Below, in pieces: positions 1 to 11,181 of a stretch of 11,181 bases of DNA. The stretch lies in NCBI GenBank assembly GCA_019058015.1, contig JAHLWH010000171.1:1-11181 (forward strand), written 5' to 3'. Position numbers and translations under genes: made by a program. This stretch comes from Promethearchaeota archaeon. GTDB lineage: Archaea > Asgardarchaeota > Lokiarchaeia > Sigyniarchaeales > SOKP01. The notes beneath the pieces were generated by a model. That model was given only the letters and a program-made list of their open reading frames with translations. It was not told the origin of the DNA and searched no databases. The stretch's first letter is position 1. Every line of letters begins with the position of its first letter.

Positions 1-102
1 CGGTTATGTGTTTAATAGACTGGTTATTTCTCGTACCAATTTCCTACATTTTCGTTTTTGAAATCAAGGGGTTCAAGTTAAAGACAATAGAATAAATTTT
101 AA

Positions 103-120
103 TTTTTTTTTTTTTTTTTT
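103..120 (+). repeat. poly-T tract (T18)
   Basis: 18 consecutive T read directly from the sequence. Possible archaeal-type terminator. Confidence 0.8.
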
Positions 121-392
121 CCATATTTTTTGCCTATTTTTTATTCAATACTGAGTTTATCACTCAATCCACCAAAGAACGGTCCTAAAAAGGCCCAATA
201 TACATACTGCATATTTTAAGATAAATCCTGAAAGTAAAACAGAAATTATGGTATAACCTAAAATTGCAACCGAATAAAACAACATTTGTTTCGTTGACAG
301 AATACTTTCTTTTGCATAAATGCACACATCTGTGTTTGGGTTTCAATATTCTTAATGCAAGCGCCACGACCCCGGGAAATTTCATGGAAATA

Positions 393-429
393 TAACACTA
401 AGCTAACGCTAATAACGCTACTAACGCTA
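393..429 (+). repeat. short direct repeats TAACGCTA (9-bp period)
   Basis: TAACGCTA at 404, 413 and 422, plus the variant TAACACTA at 393. Confidence 0.8.
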
Positions 430-685: not shown

Positions 686-727
686 GGTAAATTCAGAGTC
701 TCGTTTTCATGAAAATTCCTTTGAAAA
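686..727 (+). repeat. 42-bp cassette-boundary repeat, copy 1
   Basis: ggtaaattcagagtctcgttttcatgaaaattcctttgaaaa; aligns without gaps to the other copies. Confidence 0.93.
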
Positions 728-877
728 GACGAAATAGAAAGTAAAAAGATTGGGATTTTCTCTGTTAATACACATTTTTTATAGTAAAATCATATAAGCT
801 AATATATTATCCAGATTCTTAGTGAAATTATTTGGATATTTATTTTCATTTAAATTACACCTTACACAGGATAAACC

Positions 878-1843
878 TTAAGTGCCAAGTCTCACCGTGG
901 AACGCGCCACCCAATCCCTAAGCCTATTGCCCGAGCGATGTACAGACAAGTACAGCCGCTTATGATACCAGTAACCGACCGGGACTAGCCTTTTCAAGCG
1001 ATTTTCTCCCGAATTTGGCATATAGGAACCAAGCAACCACAAAGCATTGCTGTCATACCGGTCATGACTTACTTGATTGGTTGTTTCAAGCCGAGTTATA
1101 AAGTGGGTGAGAAAATCTTCTGGTGTCCATCCCGTTTCTCCCTGATAGGTCGACGTACTTAAGGTTCGTAAATAATCATGGGGGGTAGAATATTCCTCTA
1201 GTTGTTTTCTTCCTCCTATGACCTTACCCTGTCCTTGCTGAGGCATAATAAGTATAGGCTCAATTAGTCCCACACTCCAGCCGGGTACAGCACATAAGCT
1301 GGTTTCCTGCATTACATCTTCTTTAGTTAATCCTTGATGGTTATGATCGGTATAGACTTGAGGGAAATAAACAAGATTAGGAGTATCCACTGCTTGACGC
1401 ACCCTATCCCATATCCAGATCGGTTCAGCAGTATTTACACGAACCGGTATATCAATGTCAGTAGAATTTTTTTTAGTCTGGATAATTTTTCCCGCCACGG
1501 CATGTTTAAGAACGGCAGTTTTTACTCGTTCAATAAGTTGTGAAATAGGCATTGCGATCGGCGTTAACTGAAGCTGAGTAAATCCTTGTTGCATTTTCCT
1601 GTCAACCAATTCCTTATTGTGTGTAAATACTTCTTGCAGCTGTTCTTGAGTTGGTACAGGGTACTCTTTTCCGTCAATTCCAATCACCCCTAAATTTTCC
1701 GATCGTGGAAGAAAGGTTAAAATTCCTGTTCGGTTCAATGCAGTAATGGTGCGAGCATATTCCTTCTGAAGAGGTAATAATCCTTCGGCAGTTCTAGCTG
1801 TTTTAGAAGGTTTCAAGCCATTAATCTCTTCGTGCTTGTCCAT
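878..1843 (-). CDS. hypothetical protein, C-terminus resembling CLec/FGE-like (DGR-target-type) domain
   Basis: 321-aa ORF, visibly more GC-rich than its neighbours. The C-terminal pattern GETGWTPEDF...LWLLGSY...VPVGYW...ARSTVRL recalls CLec-fold proteins ending in RxxxR. Fold call is from recognition only. Confidence 0.75.
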   Translation of the reverse strand: MDKHEEINGLKPSKTARTAEGLLPLQKEYARTITALNRTGILTFLPRSENLGVIGIDGKEYPVPTQEQLQEVFTHNKELVDRKMQQGFTQLQLTPIAMPISQLIERVKTAVLKHAVAGKIIQTKKNSTDIDIPVRVNTAEPIWIWDRVRQAVDTPNLVYFPQVYTDHNHQGLTKEDVMQETSLCAVPGWSVGLIEPILIMPQQGQGKVIGGRKQLEEYSTPHDYLRTLSTSTYQGETGWTPEDFLTHFITRLETTNQVSHDRYDSNALWLLGSYMPNSGENRLKRLVPVGYWYHKRLYLSVHRSGNRLRDWVARSTVRLGT

Positions 1844-2016
1844 AATAACCTAATAAAACGGGAATATTTAGGATTTACTATTTAGAAATTAAATTAGGTT
1901 ATTGAAGATTAATAACTCGTTCTTTAAAGCGAGCTTTAGTGCCGAAAACGGCTTTCCCGTGCAGGTGCCATTCTCGGATCTTGGAGATCTCGAGGTGGAT
2001 GCTGGAGCGAGGGAAT

Positions 2017-2040
2017 TTTCAATGAAAATTCCTTTGAAAA
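2017..2040 (+). repeat. 42-bp cassette-boundary repeat, copy 2 (right half only)
   Basis: tttcaatgaaaattcctttgaaaa matches the consensus right 24 nt exactly. It is followed by gaagaaa, like gacgaaa after copy 1. The left half is missing. Confidence 0.85.
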
Positions 2041-2224
2041 GAAGAAACTATTAGAATTGTACTCAATTCTAATATTTGAAGGTTTGTTTTTTTACCCAAA
2101 AAGCCATTCTTTTCATTATCCAAGAACTCGCGCTCATAAATTTGTAAATATATTGTTTCTTAATTACTTGTTTTTTAAATTTAAAGATTTTTATATTCTG
2201 CAGCAATATTATATTAGAATTCTT

Positions 2225-3220
2225 ATGAAAATTTTATTCATTGGTGGAACGGGAAATATTAGTAGCTATGTAAGTAAATTACTATTAGAAAAAGGAAAAG
2301 ACCTTTATTTATTAAATCGAGGTAATATCAAAGTAGATTTACCTGGAGCCAATCATATTAAAGCTGATATAAGAAATAAAGAAGAAATTATTAAAATTCT
2401 TTCTGATCAGAAATTTGATGTTGTAGTAGATTGGATTGCTTTTACAGTAGATCATGTAGAGTTCGATTATGAATTGTTTAAAGATAAAGTTAAGCAATAT
2501 ATTTTTATTAGCAGTGCTTCTGTTTATCAAAAACCCCCTTCAACTCCATATATTACTGAATCTACACCATTAAAGAACCCTTATTGGCAATATAGCCGAG
2601 ATAAAATTGCTTGTGAAGAATTTTTAAGGAAAAAATATCGTGAGAACGATTTTTCTATTACAATTGTTCGTCCTTCTCATACTTATAATACTATTTATCC
2701 CATAATTTCTCCTGGAGATAATAATTACACTTTTATTGATAGAATTAAAAAGGGAAAAGAAGTCTATCTCCATGGAGATGGGACAACACTCTGGACATTA
2801 ACTCATTCAGAAGATTTTGCGAAAGGTTTTTGTGGGTTAATTGGAAATATCCATTCAATCGGTCATGCGTTTCATATTACGTCTGATGAAATTCTAACTT
2901 GGAATCAAATATATGAGATTATGGCTGATACTCTGGGAGTAAAATTAAATCTTGTGTATATTCCTTCAGAATTTCTTAATAAATGTGATAATCAAGTAGG
3001 TTCTTCCTTGTTAGGAGATAAATCCTATAGTATGATTTTTGATAATTCAAAAATTAAACAATTCGTTCCTGAATTCAAAGCGACTATCCCCTTTTCAGAG
3101 GGAATAAAGCGTGTTTTTAAATGGTTTGAAGCAGATCCTAAAAGAAAGATTATCGATAAATCTATAAATGAGGGAATGGATAGAATAATTTCATTATATA
3201 AGAACAATAGAAATCTCTAA
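2225..3220 (+). CDS. NAD-dependent epimerase/dehydratase (extended/atypical SDR)
   Basis: MKILFIGGTGNIS Rossmann motif, FISSASVY, YSRDK (YxxxK) and IVRPSHTY. True start taken as ATG 2225, with TTTATA at 2190-2195 upstream, rather than 2057. Confidence 0.92.
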   Translation: MKILFIGGTGNISSYVSKLLLEKGKDLYLLNRGNIKVDLPGANHIKADIRNKEEIIKILSDQKFDVVVDWIAFTVDHVEFDYELFKDKVKQYIFISSASVYQKPPSTPYITESTPLKNPYWQYSRDKIACEEFLRKKYRENDFSITIVRPSHTYNTIYPIISPGDNNYTFIDRIKKGKEVYLHGDGTTLWTLTHSEDFAKGFCGLIGNIHSIGHAFHITSDEILTWNQIYEIMADTLGVKLNLVYIPSEFLNKCDNQVGSSLLGDKSYSMIFDNSKIKQFVPEFKATIPFSEGIKRVFKWFEADPKRKIIDKSINEGMDRIISLYKNNRNL

Positions 3221-3281
3221 AGAAAGAAATTTAATCTCTTTTACTTATTAATTCTAGAATCTCTATTGATATGTATGAAAT

Positions 3282-3323
3282 GGTAAATTCAGAGTCTGAT
3301 TTATTTTAAAATTCCTCTTTATT
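3282..3323 (+). repeat. 42-bp cassette-boundary repeat, copy 3 (degenerate right half)
   Basis: ggtaaattcagagtctgatttattttaaaattcctctttatt; first 21 nt are identical to the consensus. Confidence 0.9.
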
Positions 3324-3461
3324 ATGCGGATTTACGGCACCGGGGATATATGTCCCTTTATATGAGAGAGGGGGATAAGTGGTGGATTCGGATTTATTTT
3401 TCCATAAGATTTTTATAAAGCGTTATATAACATTATTATCAAAAAAGAACCTTGTATTTAA

Positions 3462-4127
3462 ATGAAAGATCTTGTAAAGAAGCTATTACTTTTCTTTTTT
3501 GTTTATATTCTTTATCAGAACATATTCTACATAATTCTTGTACCAGAGATATACTCGATTCCTATTTATGTTGTCTATTTACTTACCGCATATTTGTTTA
3601 CTCTTGCAGATACGTTAATTCGTTCCCTTCCAGAGGAAAAACGAGCTTCAAAAATTTTTGATATTCTAATTTTATCTATGCTTTTATTATCTCCTTTCTT
3701 CCTAATAGGGGCATATCTTGAAAATTTGTTACTTATATCCCAAATATTCCCTTTCTGGGATAATATTATAATCAGTTATATAGGATTCACTCTCTATCTT
3801 GTTGGTGCCTTGCTTACACTTGTAGCGCGAGCGCAGTTAGGACGATTTGGAACTGCGGAATTAACTACCGAAGATGATCATCAACTTTTTACTCAGGGAG
3901 TATATAAATATATTCGAAATCCCATGTATTCTGGTGGTTTAATTGCGACTATTGGATTTTGCCTTGTGTTCAGATGTATCATTATGCTTATCATTATGTT
4001 TATATATACTTTCTTAGTTTATAGAATGCGTATTATTGAAGAAGAAAGAATTTTACTAGAGAAATTTGGTAACGAATTTGAAGAATATAAAAAGAAAACT
4101 AAAAATCTATTTCCATTTCTTTATTAA
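3462..4127 (+). CDS. isoprenylcysteine carboxyl methyltransferase (ICMT/PEMT) family membrane protein
   Basis: Multi-TM protein with HQLFTQGVYKYIRNPMYSG and RIIEEERILLEKFGNEFEEYKKKT motifs. Confidence 0.9.
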   Translation: MKDLVKKLLLFFFVYILYQNIFYIILVPEIYSIPIYVVYLLTAYLFTLADTLIRSLPEEKRASKIFDILILSMLLLSPFFLIGAYLENLLLISQIFPFWDNIIISYIGFTLYLVGALLTLVARAQLGRFGTAELTTEDDHQLFTQGVYKYIRNPMYSGGLIATIGFCLVFRCIIMLIIMFIYTFLVYRMRIIEEERILLEKFGNEFEEYKKKTKNLFPFLY

Positions 4128-4147
4128 AAAATCATTTCTTCAGAACA

Positions 4148-4189
4148 AGTTAATTCAAAGTCTGATTTCAATGAAAATTCCTTTGAAAT
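4148..4189 (+). repeat. 42-bp cassette-boundary repeat, copy 4
   Basis: agttaattcaaagtctgatttcaatgaaaattcctttgaaat, starting 21 nt after the ICMT stop. Confidence 0.9.
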
Positions 4190-4345
4190 TTTCGTAGCAA
4201 CTGCTGAGCAAGTCGACCATTGCTAAGATTAAAAAACAGAGAAATTTGATATTATTTTTGCTATTCAAGCTCTAACTCTAATGCAAAAATAAATAAAAAT
4301 AATGCAGGTTTTAATACTATTAAAAAAAAAAATTTGCGATTTTAA

Positions 4346-5017
4346 ATGGTAAATAATAAATTAAAATTCTATATTAAGAATTGGTATTATTTTGGTGCTG
4401 TTCTATTCGTAGTATTAGCTTATATCGTTGGATTTTTTGGAGAAGCAATAAATCCGCTTCAAAAAATATTGATACTGAGCTTTATGGCTTTGCTTGTGCA
4501 TCAATTCGAGGAATATGGACTCCCAGGAGGATTTCCTGCGATAATGAATTCTATAATTAGGGGAGAGACGGAAGTCCCAGATAGATTTCCATTGAACCAA
4601 AAAAGCGTCGCAGTTGTAAATGTAATCGGAGCATATACCTTCTATATCGCAGCCATTTTCTTGTCAAATCTGATTTGGCTCGGACTCGCGCAGATATTGT
4701 TTGGCATGGTGCAGTTCCTGATGCATGGTATCATTATTAACGTTAAAATGAAGACTTTTTACAACCCAGGAATGGGGGCGGTCGTATTTCTTCACTGGCC
4801 AATTGGGATCTATTACATATGGTACATACATGCAAACGGGCTCGTGCAGGCACTGGATTGGATTGTGGCAATCGCGTGCGTAGTTGCGGTTGTAATATTT
4901 ATTGTCGCACTACCAGGTAGGCTGCTTCAAGACAAGAACTCTGAACATCCGTTTTCAAAGGAAGAAATGGAACGCTTTAACATGAAAGAAAAGCTGGCAA
5001 AGTTGCAAGGAAAATAA
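4346..5017 (+). CDS. HXXEE domain-containing membrane protein
   Basis: LLVHQFEEYGLPGGF (HxxEE) and YNPG motifs, several hydrophobic helices. Confidence 0.88.
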   Translation: MVNNKLKFYIKNWYYFGAVLFVVLAYIVGFFGEAINPLQKILILSFMALLVHQFEEYGLPGGFPAIMNSIIRGETEVPDRFPLNQKSVAVVNVIGAYTFYIAAIFLSNLIWLGLAQILFGMVQFLMHGIIINVKMKTFYNPGMGAVVFLHWPIGIYYIWYIHANGLVQALDWIVAIACVVAVVIFIVALPGRLLQDKNSEHPFSKEEMERFNMKEKLAKLQGK

Positions 5018-5093
5018 AAGGCTTTCACGCTCAGCACTTCCGAATCATTTAGCGCGTGTTCTACTTCCTCTTTTAAACCAAAATCATCGCCGA

Positions 5094-5178
5094 ATTTGCA
5101 TTTTCCTCCGTTTTAAGAGACACAAGGTTCGAGCCTTTTTAAATGTTGTCCCAATTTTCTGTGAAAACTGGATGGAAA
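5094..5178 (+). repeat. 85-bp left-flank duplication shared with 7841-7925
   Basis: atttgcattttcctccgttttaagagacacaaggttcgagcc...gatggaaa aligns without gaps to 7841-7925 with few substitutions. Confidence 0.92.
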
Positions 5179-5220
5179 GGTAAATTCAGAGTCTGATTTC
5201 AATGAAAATTTAGTGAAAAA
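5179..5220 (+). repeat. 42-bp cassette-boundary repeat, copy 5
   Basis: ggtaaattcagagtctgatttcaatgaaaatttagtgaaaaa. Confidence 0.93.
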
Positions 5221-5269
5221 TTCCCATCAATTAAAGTAGTGAGATATAAAAAAATACAGAAAAAATTGA

Positions 5270-6448
5270 TTATTCTATTCTTTTCCTTTTGCGTCTGATT
5301 AAAAGTATGGCTACTACACCTACCACTGCTCCTCCACTAATAACTGATATTAAAATAATCAATTCGAGGGGAATTCCTCCACCTTCTTGAATTGGACATT
5401 TCATTAATGGAAAGTTATCTTGGCTTCCCGCTTGGCCAGTAATAGTATATGGAACATCACCAATTCCATCGCCACCCGCATCGGAACCTGTATAATCACT
5501 CCAATAATTCCCCTTTATACCATTATCCCAGTTGTTATTCAAACCTTCATCATGAGCATTCTTACTGTTATTAATAAAACAATTAAGAAATATAGAATTC
5601 CCCGATGAACTATCGCCTGTTGCTGGAATTCCCAAACCAGCCCCCCCCGTAAATGAATTGTATTTCATCATATTTTGCGTAACTGTGTTATAATGACTGC
5701 CATGTAAATATATCCCATTATAGTTATTACTATTTGCGATATTTTCCGAAAGAATGTTATTATCACTATAAAAAAGAACTATCCCATTAAGGTTGCTAGT
5801 CGCGTTATTTCCTGAAAGGGTGTTATTATCACTAGAATAAAGATCTATCCCATACCAGTTATAATTGTTATTTGCGATATTTCCCGAAAGGGTGTTATTA
5901 TCACTATAAGAAAGAACTATCCCATTATCATTGCTATTCGCAGTATTTCCTGAAATTGTATTATTATTACAATAATTAGATAAAAATATTCCAAAATTCC
6001 TATTATTCGAACAGTCATTATCAATTATTTGCCCATTACTAACCTTTATTAATCTGATTCCCGCATCACCATAGTTTGCTCCCGAATTATAGAGGGTGCA
6101 GTTTTCAATCCTAAAGTATACATCAGAATTTCTTATCCAAATACAATTTCCCGAATATCCGCCATCTATTACCAAATCCTCTATAACATATGGCTCGGAA
6201 TAAGTGCCATTTCCCGTACAAATTCCCGCATTCTTAGCAGCAGTCCAATTAGTGTCAATATGAATTTTTCCCGATAGTGCTGAGATTTTCAAATTTTCGT
6301 TATCGAAATTAATATCATCGCTATACTCCGAACTTTTATCGCTATTTCCCGCATTAAAATTGAGATTATTGTTAATTATAAGTGATAAAGCGAAAATGAT
6401 TCCTAAAATCATAAAAAATACTGTTTTTGTTTTTAGATTGTATTGCAT
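5270..6448 (-). CDS. secreted, membrane-anchored NosD-like right-handed parallel beta-helix protein
   Basis: N-terminal hydrophobic signal/TM segment, CTGNGTYSEPYVIEDLVIDGG, repeated GIxLxxSDNNTLSGN coils, GNYWSDY...DGIGDVPY, and a C-terminal TM with basic tail RRKRKR. This architecture is common in Lokiarchaeia. Confidence 0.9.
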   Translation of the reverse strand: MQYNLKTKTVFFMILGIIFALSLIINNNLNFNAGNSDKSSEYSDDINFDNENLKISALSGKIHIDTNWTAAKNAGICTGNGTYSEPYVIEDLVIDGGYSGNCIWIRNSDVYFRIENCTLYNSGANYGDAGIRLIKVSNGQIIDNDCSNNRNFGIFLSNYCNNNTISGNTANSNDNGIVLSYSDNNTLSGNIANNNYNWYGIDLYSSDNNTLSGNNATSNLNGIVLFYSDNNILSENIANSNNYNGIYLHGSHYNTVTQNMMKYNSFTGGAGLGIPATGDSSSGNSIFLNCFINNSKNAHDEGLNNNWDNGIKGNYWSDYTGSDAGGDGIGDVPYTITGQAGSQDNFPLMKCPIQEGGGIPLELIILISVISGGAVVGVVAILLIRRKRKRIE

Positions 6449-6928
6449 TTTATTTTCGCCAAGAATGTATAGACTATTATGTAAAAAAGATGATAAATAA
6501 ATATTTAATATTTTTGTCGATAATTATTTTTTTCTCAATCCTTACCCCTTTCTCTTTTCGAATTCTCTTTCTAAATCAACTTAAGACAAAAATAAATATG
6601 AGTTAAATCTTTAACTATTAGATAAACAAATTCTGAAATATATTGGAAATTTTTTAAGGAATCAAGGTCATCTCCTCAAAAACCGCAAATATAGGAGTAT
6701 TATAAGACCGGGCTCAATATTTTTTAAAGAAGGTAATTACGCAAGTAATTTTGCCTCGTGGGATGCAGAATTAACCGAAAGGATACTCAGTGGTAATTCG
6801 TTTAAAGTTCTAGGGAATTGAAAAGAGAATAACTTGTTCATCTTATAGAAAGACAATTAACATACTTAGAAAAAAAAGGGATGCATTGTGGAAAATTGGA
6901 AAACTTTATTCAACAACAAGACTGGAGA

Positions 6929-6970
6929 GGTAAATTCAGAGTCTGATTTCCATGAAAATTTCTTTGAAAA
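6929..6970 (+). repeat. 42-bp cassette-boundary repeat, copy 6
   Basis: ggtaaattcagagtctgatttccatgaaaatttctttgaaaa. Confidence 0.93.
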
Positions 6971-7139
6971 TGTTAAGATATGACAATTTATTCTAATAAG
7001 ATTTCTTATAATGCCTTTCTATAATGAGTGTAATACCAAATTAGAGGATAGCTGGATCTAATTGAATAAAGAAATTATAGGATCTTGATAAATACTGGTC
7101 TACAAATTTTTTATATTAGAATTTTCTTTAAATTCTAAT

Positions 7140-7766
7140 ATGAATCATGATTTAGACAATCTTTTTAAATTAACACCAGAGTATGTTAAAGAAGCATGTA
7201 AAGTGGCAGGTAATGCTTTTCAAGATGATCCTATTATGGTATTTGTATATCCTGATGAGAAAGAAAGAAAACAAAAGTCAAAATATGGATTTTATACGCT
7301 CTATAACTACGGAATAAAATATGGACTAGCTTATGCTACATCTAAGAACTTAGAAGGAATTATAATATGGCTTCCCGCCAATAAGGTGTATCCATCTACT
7401 TGGACTATGATGAGACATGGTGGTTTTTATACAATGCGTAAAGTAGGTTTAAAACTAAAAGCAATGAAAAGAACTATGACAGTTTTTAAGTATGAGGAAG
7501 AGAGACATAAAGAACTTGCACCCTATGACCATTGGTATTTTCAAAATATTGCCGTTAAACCAGAAGAACAAGGAAAAGGATATGGGGGATTACTGATAAG
7601 TACTATGTTAAAAACAATTGAGAGCGATGGGTTACCGATTTATGTGGAAACTAACACTGAAAAAAGTGTGTCCATTTACCAGAAATATGGATTCGAAATT
7701 CTTGAATATGGAATAATCCCTGAAACCGATATAGCTCTTTGGTGTATGTTAAGAAAACCACGTTAA
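7140..7766 (+). CDS. GNAT family N-acetyltransferase
   Basis: AFQDDP, HWYFQNIAVKPEEQGKGYGG (acetyl-CoA motif A), IYVET and YQKYGF. TTTATA at 7110-7115 upstream. Confidence 0.92.
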   Translation: MNHDLDNLFKLTPEYVKEACKVAGNAFQDDPIMVFVYPDEKERKQKSKYGFYTLYNYGIKYGLAYATSKNLEGIIIWLPANKVYPSTWTMMRHGGFYTMRKVGLKLKAMKRTMTVFKYEEERHKELAPYDHWYFQNIAVKPEEQGKGYGGLLISTMLKTIESDGLPIYVETNTEKSVSIYQKYGFEILEYGIIPETDIALWCMLRKPR

Positions 7767-7925
7767 GCTTGATAAATGAGTTTAGTGAACTCTTCTTATG
7801 AAAACCTACGAAATTTTTGTTTGGGTTCGATTTTTCGCTCATTTGTATTTTCCTCCGTTTTAAGAGACACATGGTTCGAGCCCTTTTAAATATTGTCTCA
7901 ATTTTCTGTGAAAATTGAATGGAAA

Positions 7926-7967
7926 GGTAAATTCCGAGTCTGATTTTCATGAAAATTTCATTGAAAA
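7926..7967 (+). repeat. 42-bp cassette-boundary repeat, copy 7
   Basis: ggtaaattccgagtctgattttcatgaaaatttcattgaaaa. Confidence 0.93.
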
Positions 7968-8029
7968 ACGAAATAGAAAGTAAAAAGATTGGGCTAATAT
8001 ATTATCTAGATTCTTAGTGAAATATTTGG
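7968..8029 (+). repeat. right-flank duplication shared with 729-835
   Basis: acgaaatagaaagtaaaaagattggg plus ctaatatattatctagattcttagtgaaatatttgg match 729-754 and 799-835. The copy-1 flank has 44 extra nt between the two blocks. Confidence 0.88.
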
Positions 8030-8076
8030 CTCCGAAAAAAGCTAAGAGTTTTAAATCTAAAAAAATCATCTTATCT

Positions 8077-9321
8077 ATGTTAGAAGAAGGAACAACGAAT
8101 TCAGAACTAAAGAAACAACGGCTTATCTTCCTTGATAATCTAAAACTCTTATTTGCTATTCTCGTGATTTTTACACATGTTAGGGTCACCTATGGAGGGG
8201 AAGGATGGTGGTACTATATTTCCACGTTAAATGAGTCTAATCCAACTGATACTTTCACCCTTATATTCTTTTACATGACAGCCGGATTTGCGGGTATTTT
8301 TCAAGCCTCACTCATGGGATTATTCTTTTTAATGGGTGGTTATTTTACTCCTAAGAGTTATGATCGAAAGGGAGTCTCGGCATTCTGGAAAGAACGATTT
8401 CTTCGTCTTGGCATTCCAGTCCTTTTATATGTTGTGTTAATTAATCCCATTATTTTTTATCTCCTAAGCGCTGGAGGAATTCAACCCTGGAGTTCCTACC
8501 CAAGAATGCAAGGATCTTTTCTAGACTATTATTTAAGCAATTTTCAATCCTTAGAAAATTTTGTAGATTTTATAACAGAATTTGTTATTATGTGGTTTAT
8601 CGTTGTTTTATTAATTTTTATTGCTGTTTATACAATTTGGCGTCCGATATCGAAAATTGACTCGATACAGAAACGCATCCCAAAAGAATTCCCCATCCCA
8701 AAATTCATCTATTTATTCCTTTTAGCTGTTTGCTTAGGATTTCTTTCTTTTCTAGTTCGCATAACCTTTTCCATAATCGATGTTCCGCTGGGATTACCAT
8801 TAGCTTATATGATTCAGTATTTTATGATGTTTAGCGTTGGTGTAATCGCTTATCGATATGGATGGTTCGAACAGATGACTAGACATCATGTCAAAGTCTG
8901 GGTTATTACAATATTTGCTGCGGTTATGTTATTTTTTACGTATTTCTTTGTTTTTGTAGGAGTAGATTCAGATTATAGTGCTTTTTTTGGAGGACCCAAT
9001 TTGAATGCTCTTATATTTGCACTGTTAGATAATATCGCTTGTATGGGGATGATTTTTATTTTAATTAAGATTTTTTACGCAAAATTCAACAAGCAAGGAA
9101 AAATACTAAAGAATCTAGCATCTAGCTCATATCATATGTACCTTATTCATCCATTCGTCGTTATTCCAGTATCTCTTGGATTTGCATTTATACCTGTTTC
9201 TCCTTTAATAAAACTAGCTATAGTCTTTCCTGTATCAGTCCTCCTTTGCTATCTTATAAGTCATTTTATCCTCCAAAAAATACATTTGATAAAACGCACA
9301 AGAGTTACTCAGAATAATTAG
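8077..9321 (+). CDS. acyltransferase family 3 membrane protein (OpgC/MdoC-like)
   Basis: RLIFLDNLK...LVIFTH, MGLFFLMGGYF, ERFLRLGIP, MWFI and SSYHMYLIHP motifs, about 10 TM segments. ATG 8077 is preferred because GTG 8017 lies inside the duplicated flank. Confidence 0.9.
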   Translation: MLEEGTTNSELKKQRLIFLDNLKLLFAILVIFTHVRVTYGGEGWWYYISTLNESNPTDTFTLIFFYMTAGFAGIFQASLMGLFFLMGGYFTPKSYDRKGVSAFWKERFLRLGIPVLLYVVLINPIIFYLLSAGGIQPWSSYPRMQGSFLDYYLSNFQSLENFVDFITEFVIMWFIVVLLIFIAVYTIWRPISKIDSIQKRIPKEFPIPKFIYLFLLAVCLGFLSFLVRITFSIIDVPLGLPLAYMIQYFMMFSVGVIAYRYGWFEQMTRHHVKVWVITIFAAVMLFFTYFFVFVGVDSDYSAFFGGPNLNALIFALLDNIACMGMIFILIKIFYAKFNKQGKILKNLASSSYHMYLIHPFVVIPVSLGFAFIPVSPLIKLAIVFPVSVLLCYLISHFILQKIHLIKRTRVTQNN

Positions 9322-9461
9322 AAAATCTATATTGATTCAAAAGAAAATTGGGACAAAATTTTTTATTTATTTTGAATACAGCATAAGGACGTATCAATAC
9401 TTTTATTTGTTACTTTACTATTATAATTATAGGGAAAAATCAAAAATAAGTTGAGTTTGAA

Positions 9462-10193
9462 TTGACAGAAAGAAATTTTCAAGAAAAATTTCCAAAAAAT
9501 TATTTAACATCCGTAGCGTGCGAAATTCGATTTGATCCTCTATTGATGATTCAAAACAAAATTCCCGAATTTCAAGAAAAAATACGTGGAGAACTTCCTT
9601 CGTATGGGTTTGAATCCACAATTCCTGTAGTAGAACCATCACTTATAAGTCAATTTAGCGGAGTTAAACAATGGATGTTTACATCAAAAGATAAAATTAA
9701 AACATTAAAAATATTGATTAATAGGATTGGATTTATCGTCTCAAAGTATTCCAAATTTGAAGAATTTTATGAAGAGATGGTAAAATACTTCAACGATTTT
9801 TTTAAAATCTGCGACATTGATGAATTTTCCAGAATTGGTTTACGGTATGTAAATGTATTTATACTAAATGAATTAGAAGATTCACAGCAGATTTCTTTAA
9901 CAAAATTTTTTAATGTGGTATTAGATAAGGCAATACTGGAAGAATATAGCCCTTTTCAATTTGAGACAGCAATTAGGTGTGAAAAGGATGACAATACCCT
10001 TTTTCTTAAGAATGCATTAAGGGATGATGTTCGTGGTGAACCAAATTATATCATTGATATTGATGCGTTTAAGTCAGGGAATCTACAAAAAAAAGACATG
10101 GGAGATATTATTAAAGATTTACATAAATTAGAAATACAAGAGTTTCATAATCATATCACCAATGAGATTATAAATATATTGAGGAGTGATTAA
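9462..10193 (+). CDS. TIGR04255 family protein
   Basis: FPKNYLTSVACEIRF, YSKFEEF, SRIGLRYVN and YIIDID motifs. TTG start. Confidence 0.82.
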   Translation: MTERNFQEKFPKNYLTSVACEIRFDPLLMIQNKIPEFQEKIRGELPSYGFESTIPVVEPSLISQFSGVKQWMFTSKDKIKTLKILINRIGFIVSKYSKFEEFYEEMVKYFNDFFKICDIDEFSRIGLRYVNVFILNELEDSQQISLTKFFNVVLDKAILEEYSPFQFETAIRCEKDDNTLFLKNALRDDVRGEPNYIIDIDAFKSGNLQKKDMGDIIKDLHKLEIQEFHNHITNEIINILRSD

Positions 10194-10196
10194 AAA

Positions 10197-10751
10197 GTGA
10201 GTGATCGAACTAAGAATGATGAACTAAGACGTAAAATATTGGAAACGCTTAGAAGAAGAAACGACTTAGCACACACCATTGATGAAAGAACAGATATCTC
10301 AAAAGAAAGTTCTGATATTGAAGATAAGGAATTGGAAGAAACTGAATATACTGAATCTGCTGTAATTCCATCATTGCATACAATAGGTACTCCAGTTTCA
10401 ATATTAGATAAAGAGGTGGCTTCCTTATTAACGAGAGAAGCTAAAATTTGGCACATATCTACTCCTAGTACCTCAGAATTGGATGAAATTAAGAGATATA
10501 GAGAAGACATAATTCATTTACAACAACAAAATAGAGTTCTTAGTCGAACAAACGACACTTTAACTAATGAATTAGCCGAATTAACTCATAAATATGCAAA
10601 GTTAGAAGAAGAAGCAATTTCAGAGATGAAGAAGTTACGGGAGGAAATTACAAAGTTAAGAGAAGAAATTAAGTATAATAATGAAATTAGAACATTGACG
10701 TTTAGTGTACCTGAATCATGGTTAGAAGAGGAAGGTAATGAAGAAGAATAA
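10197..10751 (+). CDS. hypothetical acidic coiled-coil protein
   Basis: 184-aa ORF with GTG start 3 nt after the upstream stop and SD-like GGAGTGA upstream. Heptad-like C-terminal half. Confidence 0.75.
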   Translation: MSDRTKNDELRRKILETLRRRNDLAHTIDERTDISKESSDIEDKELEETEYTESAVIPSLHTIGTPVSILDKEVASLLTREAKIWHISTPSTSELDEIKRYREDIIHLQQQNRVLSRTNDTLTNELAELTHKYAKLEEEAISEMKKLREEITKLREEIKYNNEIRTLTFSVPESWLEEEGNEEE

Positions 10752-10777
10752 TATTTTTTTTTAAAGAGGTTTAGAAA

Positions 10778-11181
10778 TTGGAATGTACTAATATCTATGA
10801 TTCTGAGATTGATACGGCTCACCTATATCAAGGAGATATATTTAAGAGATTTGACGCAGAATATGAGAAAAATGTTTTACCAATTGTAAACACACCAGAA
10901 CTAGCATTTATGGTTTTAAACTACACATGTGACTTAATAAATACAAAAGATTTAAGCAATATATTTATTTGTCCAATTTGCAAACTAAATGTACTTATAG
11001 AGGAAACACTCAAGGGTTTGATATTAAAATACCCTAATAAGCGATAACAGAATATAGTTAAGGAGTTTAGTAAAATTATTACAAGAATTCTGAATTATGA
11101 TCAAAAATTTCTTTTTTTTCTGACAAATACTTCAGAATTTGAAGGATCTCATGCATTTGCTGATTTATTACGAATAACCAC
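10778..11181 (+). pseudogene. QGDI...TCD-motif hypothetical protein interrupted by in-frame TAA at 11045-11047, running off the window
   Basis: LYQGDIF and MVLNYTCDL motifs. After the TAA the same frame stays open for 44 codons to the window end (QNIVKEFSKIITRILNYDQKFLFFL...AFADLLRIT). SD-like GAGGT at 10766-10770. Confidence 0.65.

Follow-up and report, generated by a model that had tools for sequence, protein, structure and literature searches.

A conserved 42-nucleotide repeat as the probable junction of single-gene cassettes in a family of Lokiarchaeia, with XerA as a candidate enzyme

Introduction

What separates the unrelated accessory genes that follow one another along an 11,181-bp contig of a Promethearchaeota archaeon (Lokiarchaeia, Sigyniarchaeales)? 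The contig, JAHLWH010000171.1, was analyzed in its entirety and is referred to below as the window or C171; it belongs to a 3.84-Mb assembly of 283 contigs with 29% GC (GCA_019058015.1, G000). Between its genes lie direct copies of a 42-nt core repeat, designated R, with positions R1–R42. The original prediction, made from the letters of this DNA alone, held that the repeat delimits an integron-like array with a site other than attC and constitutes a platform for gene capture and shuffling. The analysis reported here indicates that arrays probably gain and lose single-gene units at R. The fuller statement, in which R joins cassettes that mostly hold one gene and move independently, with the host recombinase XerA as the best candidate enzyme, is favored with nearly the same confidence.

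No organisms known are more closely related to eukaryotes than the Asgard archaea, and the route by which these acquire foreign genes is an open question. A literature search that left supplements and subscription journals outside its scope returned no description of R or of repeat-bounded cassettes in Lokiarchaeia.

Layout of the array

A repeat finder detects a single direct-repeat family in the contig, with copies at 677-727, 3273-3323, 4139-4189, 5170-5220, 6920-6970, and 7917-7967. The R cores within them start at 686, 3282, 4148, 5179, 6929, and 7926, all six on the + strand, with spacings of 2596, 866, 1031, 1750, and 997. Together with a profile search, this bears out the repeat positions and co-orientation originally read from the sequence as well as a half copy at 2017, which matches the 3′ half of the profile only (2017-2040, E 2.6e-5). 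Each interval holds one open reading frame (ORF), as predicted, and Pfam returns the gene types that had been named: epimerase/SDR, PEMT/ICMT, HXXEE, NosD/beta-helix, GNAT, and Acyl_transf_3. The sites and cassette genes of the array are:

686..727, +, R copy 1, with a second copy of the start of the acyltransferase unit (leader and first codons) behind it at 728-835
2017..2047, +, half copy of R (R19-R42 plus a GAAGAA tail), which retains only the second of the two dyads described below
2225..3220, +, NAD-dependent epimerase/SDR cassette gene (translation probably begins at ATG 2225, in an ORF open from 2057)
3282..3323, +, R copy 2, degenerate in its 3′ half (repeat finder, profile)
3462..4127, +, PEMT/ICMT-type membrane methyltransferase cassette gene (Pfam), with a strain polymorphism at 3388/3390
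4148..4189, +, R copy 3 (repeat finder, profile)
4346..5017, +, HXXEE membrane protein cassette gene (Pfam), GC up to 43%
5179..5220, +, R copy 4 (repeat finder, profile)
5270..6448, -, NosD/beta-helix surface protein cassette gene with a C-terminal anchor (Pfam), on the strand opposite to R
6929..6970, +, R copy 5, whose upstream flank (6527-6928) is common to the same-genus genome G004, where another gene follows R
7140..7766, +, GNAT acetyltransferase cassette gene (Pfam)
7926..7967, +, R copy 6 (repeat finder, profile)
8017..9321, +, Acyl_transf_3 membrane acyltransferase gene (Pfam), the last array unit in the contig

Occurrence of R

Searched with a profile built from the six copies, the whole assembly yields 10 strong matches (E at most 1e-8), of which six lie in C171, two in C90, and one each in C31 and C92. 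Relatives were searched with a 32-mer of R, allowing at most three mismatches. The 32-mer is found in 13 of 41 relatives, every one in the same family as G000, and in none of 16 genomes from three sister families. Of the 135 family genomes, 101 carry it, and in the two richest genera the proportions are 51 of 54 and 37 of 42; a reversed 32-mer used as a control has no match in the same 135. Genomes carry up to 34 copies (G099). The genomes compared are metagenome-assembled genomes (MAGs), and related ones are not independent of one another. A scan of this kind had been proposed as a check on the original prediction; it finds R family-wide and clustered, not evenly scattered.

The exact form of R is present in more than 127 sediment metagenome contigs in one scan and in more than 135 genome contigs, and all 80 of the latter that were listed are archaeal MAGs labelled Asgard-type or “uncultured archaeon”. 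Among 2.9 million viral contigs, there is no match, and R was accordingly set aside as a viral or plasmid attP. Many assembly contigs break at R. One genome contig of 4335 nt (L216/L217) carries R at both ends in the same orientation, as either a collapsed inter-repeat segment or a circular form.

Alleles of R are genome-specific. C occupies R12 in 23 of the 34 G099 copies, 2 of 15 in G116, none of seven in G014, and none of nine in G000, which suggests concerted evolution of the sites within genomes. G099, G116, and G014 belong to one genus yet differ at this position.

Array anatomy and polarity

To describe the arrays as a class, 92 loci were scanned, comprising the window, other G000 contigs, 11 array regions of relatives, and 76 metagenome contigs; the last were found via a single exact match and not picked for multiple copies, but they are short. 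These loci hold 183 copies of R. Neighboring pairs no more than 10 kb apart are co-oriented in 89 of 91 cases, with a median spacing of 1271 bp (quartiles 795 and 1959), and in G099 alone 30 of 34 copies have another no farther than 10 kb away. At the one orthologous locus compared, which adjoins the thermosome gene in G099 and G101, R also keeps a constant direction with respect to the conserved flank. The 89 co-oriented intervals contain one ORF of at least 80 aa in 63 cases, none in seven, and two to five in 19.

Gene direction follows no such rule. In the single-ORF intervals the gene points the same way as R in 31 cases and the opposite way in 32. The copies are intergenic in 181 of 183 cases and occupy all four configurations: convergent (30), tandem (29 and 29), and divergent (21). 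Since R is not tied to gene direction, it is neither promoter, leader, nor terminator, in agreement with what constant repeat orientation in the window had implied. The prediction that clustered, co-oriented copies would set R apart from scattered repeats of the REP (repetitive extragenic palindromic) or MITE (miniature inverted-repeat transposable element) kind likewise holds across the scanned loci. Solo repeats derived from CRISPR were rejected: the smallest R spacing is 277 nt, and the two CRISPR-like arrays of G000 carry different repeats.

The cargo near R includes GNATs, acyltransferases, esterases, beta-lactamase-fold hydrolases, methyltransferases, EcKL kinases, HAD, and GrpB as well as NosD and beta-propeller surface proteins, TPR proteins, immunity proteins, and defense-type genes with TIR, SAVED, or AAA_15 domains. 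One copy lies at the 3′ end of a two-gene pair, in orthologous position in G000:C92 (328-1941) and G004; the pair encodes an AbiLi/AriA/GajA-like AAA ATPase and a 214-aa partner.

R as a sequence

Eighty distinct copies from several genera were aligned. Columns from about five bases before R1 through R32 (GGAAAGGTAAATTCAGAGTCTGATTTCAATGAAAATT) are at least 90% conserved, R33-38 are variable, and R39-41 (AAA) are conserved again. The original description of a fixed 42-bp repeat therefore stands as regards sequence conservation and is amended as regards extent, the conserved block being about 37 nt, from five bases before R1 through R32. R contains two dyads, AATTCAGA-G-TCTGATTT and TTTCAATG-AAAATTC-CWTTGAAA. 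The best dyads are 8-7-8 (7/8 matches) and 8-1-8; read as 11-7-11, the match is 8/11.

Neither dyad behaves as a structure. Compensatory changes amount to zero double changes in the first dyad and are no better than in shuffles in the second, and the minimum free energies of single-stranded R, calculated for three copies on both strands, lie between -2.5 and -5.3 kcal/mol (z 0 to +0.9), so that no stable hairpin is detected among them. Because covariation is absent and single-strand folds are weak, R is, as judged from these alignments, conserved as a duplex sequence, the opposite of attC, in which structure is kept and sequence drifts. On both window strands, RYYYAAC…GTTRRRY core pairs 40-130 nt apart number zero, against an average of 2.7 in shuffles. 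The conserved sequence, zero covariation, lack of a stable hairpin, and lack of cores together indicate that R is not attC, as had been claimed from the missing cores.

The 3′ boundary of R is sharp, while its 5′ side is ragged. A subset of copies, the long form, has about 110 further common bases upstream. Two copies exist in G000, both in the window and 91% identical, with a small hairpin within, and in that genome the extension matches only other R copies:

5094..5178, +, long-form upstream extension of R copy 4, with the hairpin CCCAATTTTC-TGTG-GAAAA(C)TGG
7815..7925, +, long-form upstream extension of R copy 6 (sequence comparison)

Three other identities were tried and rejected. An RNA gene finds no Rfam match at R (E up to 1), long-form RNA folds have z scores of -0.7 and -1.4, and covariation is absent. 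GGTTCGA motifs in the long form resemble a T-loop, but ARAGORN returns zero tRNA genes in the window, leaving no case for a tRNA origin. A coding repeat was considered on account of a copy in G014:C47 that lies within an open frame; other copies carry stops in that frame. The frame in question (4761-7856) spans 1031 aa, resembles an S24/S26 peptidase in its C-terminal part, and represents either a chance fusion of two genes across R or genuine read-through.

Turnover of units at R

Comparison of gene order between relatives, also proposed at the outset, shows that the order differs and that breakpoints fall at R, with the GNAT-acyltransferase pair kept in one other genus. Four comparisons carry this result.

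First, G000:C31 and G004 are collinear at 96-97% except for a replacement of 7.3 kb by 2 kb, the right end of which is exactly R1; a 353-aa membrane-protein gene common to both follows the R at that end. Second, window positions 6527-6928 plus R are 89% identical to G004, and identity stops at the end of R, after which G004 continues into a membrane-protein gene and the window into GNAT. The R alleles place this crossover between R26 and R43.

Third, in the same-genus genome G002, the left flank (24-835, 97% identical to contig C514) runs through R straight into an intact acyltransferase gene. The window has instead about 100 nt of acyltransferase leader and start after the copy at 686; other units fill the next 7.1 kb or so, beyond which R and the leader recur and run into an acyltransferase that is 91% identical. 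The duplication is visible within the window itself, where 663-754 and 798-835 match 7900-7993 and 7993-8029 at 86-95%. Fourth, the short form without the 7.1 kb is represented by a joint from 803 to 7997 in Logan contigs X3, X5, and X6, from three runs of three studies, with sides of 40-117 nt. A further arrangement, PEMT-R-acyltransferase, is absent from the window and found in two runs from two studies, with a 345-nt insertion at 3388/3390. The Logan evidence consists of assembled contigs, not reads, and the best-matching run may be the source sample. A joint from 5221 to 6449 across the NosD unit in X6 was not counted, as its side is 30 nt with unknown letters between; X3 has no cover over 5223-6714.

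In addition, the arrays beside the orthologous thermosome gene in G099 and G101 have in common only that gene (79%) and R.

Position of the unit boundary within R

Where within R one unit passes into the next was examined with 153 distinct copies, paired by common flank. Identity over R33-42 averages 0.925 for pairs that have only the downstream flank in common, a figure from eight non-independent pairs, compared with 0.634 for unrelated pairs and 0.578 for the 207 pairs with only the upstream flank in common. Over R1-26, identity is 0.92-0.97 in all pair classes. Because of these flank-sharing identities, R33-42 is assigned to the following unit and the boundary to the neighborhood of R27-33. 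R1-32 would thus end one unit and R33-42 begin the next, with the boundary in the AAAATTC spacer between TTTCAATG and CWTTGAAA. This layout is that of a tyrosine-recombinase core site and equally the one that homologous exchange in the 37-nt block would leave.

Exchange between genera

The core genes of G000 are well separated from those of five genomes of other genera (G074, G017, G071, G051, and G045), with identities of 71-74% for dnaK, 68-70% for xerA, and 66-68% for orc1. The GNAT unit is 90, 87, 79, 88, and 79% identical to the same five, and the PEMT unit, present in four of them, reaches 88, 84, 83, and 83%. Among the matches listed in a family-wide DNA search, (i) PEMT is 81-88% identical to genera g11, g2, and g6, (ii) GNAT occurs in five other genera and in none of four other same-genus genomes, (iii) the SDR unit matches genus g4 only, at 73-75% nucleotide identity, (iv) the acyltransferase is 91% identical to G002 and 87% to G014:C45, and (v) the HXXEE gene has no DNA match. 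The closest named relatives of the HXXEE protein are bacterial (54-60% identity), and closer unnamed metagenome proteins exist. G014, which belongs to another genus, has the whole block R-GNAT-R-acyltransferase at 83.5% identity, with homology setting in no more than 10 nt from R. Across the scanned loci, the acyltransferase unit has five contexts and the GNAT unit four, while most units are singletons in the sample. By these sequence affinities, each window unit has its own set of related genera, and cassettes are exchanged between genera.

PEMT homology to other genera begins at 3388/3390, a unit boundary away from R. Between R copy 2 and this point lies a GC-rich 65-nt stretch (3324-3390), which ends at the 3388/3390 polymorphism where two other runs have the 345-nt insertion.

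Recombinases in R-bearing genomes

The original prediction had the recombinase outside the window or acting in trans; in line with this, none lies in or near the arrays among about 350 ORFs. By Pfam, no integrase, resolvase, or transposase family is present near R among 11 window ORFs, 48 ORFs around single copies, 141 ORFs from the 11 array regions, and 150 metagenome-contig ORFs (of 196 with at least 110 aa). The DNA-enzyme matches near R are one HNH, one DprA-like, and one HerA-like protein only.

G000 encodes one full tyrosine recombinase (PF00589), which scores 238 bits against the NCBIfam XerA model (cut-off 220) and 99 bits against the integron-integrase model (cut-off 265). One XerA-type gene each is found in G099, G111, and the single-contig genome G086, so that XerA is the only tyrosine recombinase found in the R-rich genomes examined. 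No serine recombinase occurs in G099, G086, and G014, and no IS110 in these three, G111, and G101. A TnpB-type gene is absent from G086, and G099 has one match below the family cut-off.

Archaeal XerA is described as recombining dif without an FtsK-like partner and as tolerating variant sites in PMC2958812 and PMC8371274. Both properties make its borrowing by R plausible. In G000:C188 (1147-3279), xerA lies tail to tail with orc1/cdc6, a pairing that recurs in four of five other family genomes searched; in the fifth, the genes are 1.6 kb apart.

A proposed mechanism

In the proposed mechanism, R would be read as a duplex by a protein supplied in trans, for which host XerA is the best candidate, being the one tyrosine recombinase found in R-rich genomes and by analogy with bacterial elements that borrow Xer. 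Strand exchange would be site-specific and take place in the spacer. R-bearing DNA, most simply as excised circles, would enter a resident R and leave again, and recombination between R copies would let arrays lengthen, shorten, and change their order. Circles that carry R, inserted one after another at an R already in place, would leave all copies as direct repeats whatever the direction of the genes. The result would be an analogue of an integron in which a duplex 42-bp site, recombined in trans in its 7-nt spacer by XerA or an enzyme of a family not recognized here, captures, stacks, and exchanges single genes, including bacterial-type ones, between Asgard genera. In this complete form the proposal is tentative, somewhat short of an even chance. 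The predicted capture and shuffling platform fares well as to layout, turnover at R, inter-genus exchange, and the lack of a linked recombinase; its site-specific mode, by XerA or another enzyme rather than homologous recombination, is put marginally higher than the complete proposal and still falls below probable.

Several observations weigh against site-specific cassette exchange at R. Some concern the breakpoints, which fit homologous recombination in the 37-nt block as well as site-specific exchange, as far as the sequences go. With E values up to 50 allowed, the C31/G004 replacement still has no R at its left edge, and unit boundaries away from R are present there, at 835/836, at 3388/3390, and on the thermosome side of the arrays. 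In X5 and X6, the R that follows the PEMT gene (about 97% identical) is another allele from R1 on, which a single fixed crossover does not predict. The block R-GNAT-R-acyltransferase keeps its order in another genus, and so not every junction is in flux. Several R-to-R joints with sides of 20-31 nt within the repeat were set aside as ambiguous, and no excised circle or empty-site junction is seen in the assembled contigs.

Others concern the link to XerA. The dyad of R is an imperfect 8-7-8, compared with the 11-6-11 described for archaeal dif. Relatives of R resembling dif or the origin recognition box (ORB) were sought and gave only weak partial profile matches of a chance-like kind, and no R-like sequence was found upstream of the orc1 gene beside xerA. 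The remainder concern sampling: the small, non-independent set of pairs behind the downstream-flank identity, the choice of the 11 relative array regions for their several R copies, and the ORFs, which are crude calls (at least 80 aa, with ATG, GTG, or TTG starts) in a lineage said to use ATT starts.

Alternative explanations

The most serious alternative dispenses with a dedicated enzyme. General homologous recombination would insert, remove, or exchange R-flanked DNA acquired from relatives via 37-50 nt of near-identity, and R would be conserved since only cassettes whose R matches resident copies can integrate. This accounts for arrays without a linked recombinase, for breakpoints that coincide with the edges of the conserved block and not with one demonstrable nucleotide, for the duplication of 100 nt past R (686-835 and 7926-8029), which looks like a Campbell-type homologous event, for the different R allele after the same PEMT gene in other samples, and for alleles homogenized within genomes, as the R12 counts indicate. 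It leaves unexplained a two-dyad block that is at least 90% conserved per column across genera only about 70% identical in core genes, a right dyad arm that keeps TGAAA while traveling with the next unit, and a half copy that keeps exactly the second dyad. Moreover, 37 nt is short for efficient homologous exchange. Taken together, homologous anchoring alone is unlikely, though it is the strongest of the rivals.

R could also be a binding site for a chromatin, insulator, or regulatory protein between acquired genes, with recombination incidental. Conservation as a duplex with dyads fits such a site, as do the intergenic location of 181 of 183 copies and their place beside accessory, detoxification, and surface genes. 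Constant polarity is not something a dyad operator requires, so the co-orientation of 89 of 91 neighboring pairs goes unaccounted for; R is unrelated to gene direction or to 5′ versus 3′ gene ends; and homology breakpoints at R between strains are not predicted. A pure binding role is accordingly improbable.

Still less credit is due to R as the leftover end of a transposable element, be it a MITE, an IS200/IS605-type right end, or the att site of a virus or plasmid with its own integrase. The sharp 3′ boundary, ragged 5′ side, long form of about 110 nt in a subset of copies, and the many contigs that break at R would all suit such an end. Independent insertions would give random orientation, contrary to what is found, and no transposase or integrase lies beside any copy examined. 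G086 is R-rich without a TnpB-type gene, G099 is R-rich with only one sub-cut-off match, the viral contigs are devoid of R, and the long form has two copies in G000 and no terminal inverted-repeat partner. This origin is very improbable.

An ordinary integron, or a cluster of attC sites lacking integron-integrases (CALIN), with unusually uniform attC can be dismissed almost completely: one gene per site, co-oriented sites, cassette-type cargo (GNAT, GrpB, esterases, beta-lactamase fold), and the report of integrons with canonical attC in Asgard MAGs (Ghaly et al. 2022, PMC9668308) speak for it, while zero core pairs, no stable hairpin, no covariation, no IntI, and random gene orientation speak against it.

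Other features of the window

The remaining features of the contig are the array ends and one unit of foreign composition:

24..420, +, fragments (24-225 and 336-420) of the 3′ end region of the 353-aa membrane-protein gene, an intact copy of which follows R in C31
836..2016, -, GC-richer unit (about 41% versus 29%) that holds a 321-aa gene at 878-1843 and truncates an acyltransferase remnant on the left and an R copy on the right
9342..9361, -, inverted fragment of the long-form flank, which forms the right array end here (Logan contig X3 has a loose end at 9330)

Other strains have a long-form R where C171 has the inverted fragment 9342-9361 (e.g., G072:C47).

The 321-aa protein matches no Pfam, NCBIfam, or PADLOC family, and its Atlas neighbors are unnamed. 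Hypothetical proteins labelled Methanoregula, Thorarchaeota, Acidobacteriota, and Anaerolineaceae nevertheless match it at 65-93% identity, and it is an unusually well-conserved, widely transferred protein of no known family. As a hidden recombinase it was rejected, having no recognized family and zero copies in the scanned loci by tblastn. The half copy of R at its right border retains exactly the second dyad.

The NosD gene contains tandem repeats of about 69-138 nt (73-84% identical) at 5670-5976 and has many paralogs family-wide. Past the array, 9462-11047 (+) encodes a TIGR04255-family protein (100 bits), a 184-aa coiled-coil protein, and an 89-aa ORF, which have zero matches among those listed in the family-wide DNA search.

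Comparison with known systems

R arrays would offer a concrete, sequence-testable route for gene flow into the genomes of a family in which R is widespread (101 of 135), and the 32-mer is usable as a probe for cassette junctions in sediment metagenomes. Four kinds of known system invite comparison.

Like REP elements, bacterial interspersed mosaic elements (BIMEs), and MITEs, R is a short, conserved intergenic repeat with dyad symmetry. It differs in that its copies number in the tens and not the hundreds, are clustered and co-oriented, form no stable hairpin, and sit at gene-content breakpoints. In islands bounded by tRNA fragments, such as Prochlorococcus islands and tycheposons, direct repeats separate serially acquired cargo at a hotspot. 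R, by comparison, is not tRNA-derived, and no integrase-bearing element is present.

Integrons and CALINs resemble R arrays in their mostly single-gene units with one co-oriented site each and their accessory, often foreign cargo, and many integron arrays are likewise without an adjoining integrase (PMC9668308). R differs in being duplex-conserved and 42 nt long, without R″/R′ cores or a folded bottom-strand hairpin, and no IntI occurs in the genomes tested. Integron cassettes are promoterless, with genes mostly co-oriented with the array; the cargo of R arrays points either way in about equal proportion (31 same, 32 opposite), so there is no common promoter, and several arrays exist per genome. 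Sedentary chromosomal integrons, too, have attC sites of uniform length and sequence. Uniform sites alone cannot therefore exclude an integron; the exclusion made here follows from the missing hairpin, cores, and IntI. Since R is not attC and IntI is absent, the array is not an integron, and it works like one. It would extend the logic of cassette arrays past attC and IntI to a site read as a duplex and served by no integrase of its own.

The pdif modules of Acinetobacter plasmids are small gene modules between short conserved sites and are thought to be moved by host Xer (PMC6449649, PMC13141974, and PMC7399989). Like R arrays, the modules of those accounts have no recombinase of their own, and in the pdif case they are shuffled between replicons. 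They differ in that pdif sites are 11-6-11, alternate in orientation, and lie on plasmids. R combines an 8-7-8 dyad with a second one, its copies form direct repeats, and it resides on the chromosome. Integrative mobile elements exploiting Xer (IMEX) form arrays at dif and also borrow host Xer. The R-bearing genomes have the corresponding combination, host Xer and no element-encoded recombinase, and by this analogy Xer-dependent dif modules may be the nearest mechanistic analogue of R arrays. If XerA does act at R, cassettes that borrow the chromosome-dimer resolvase would be a first for archaea.

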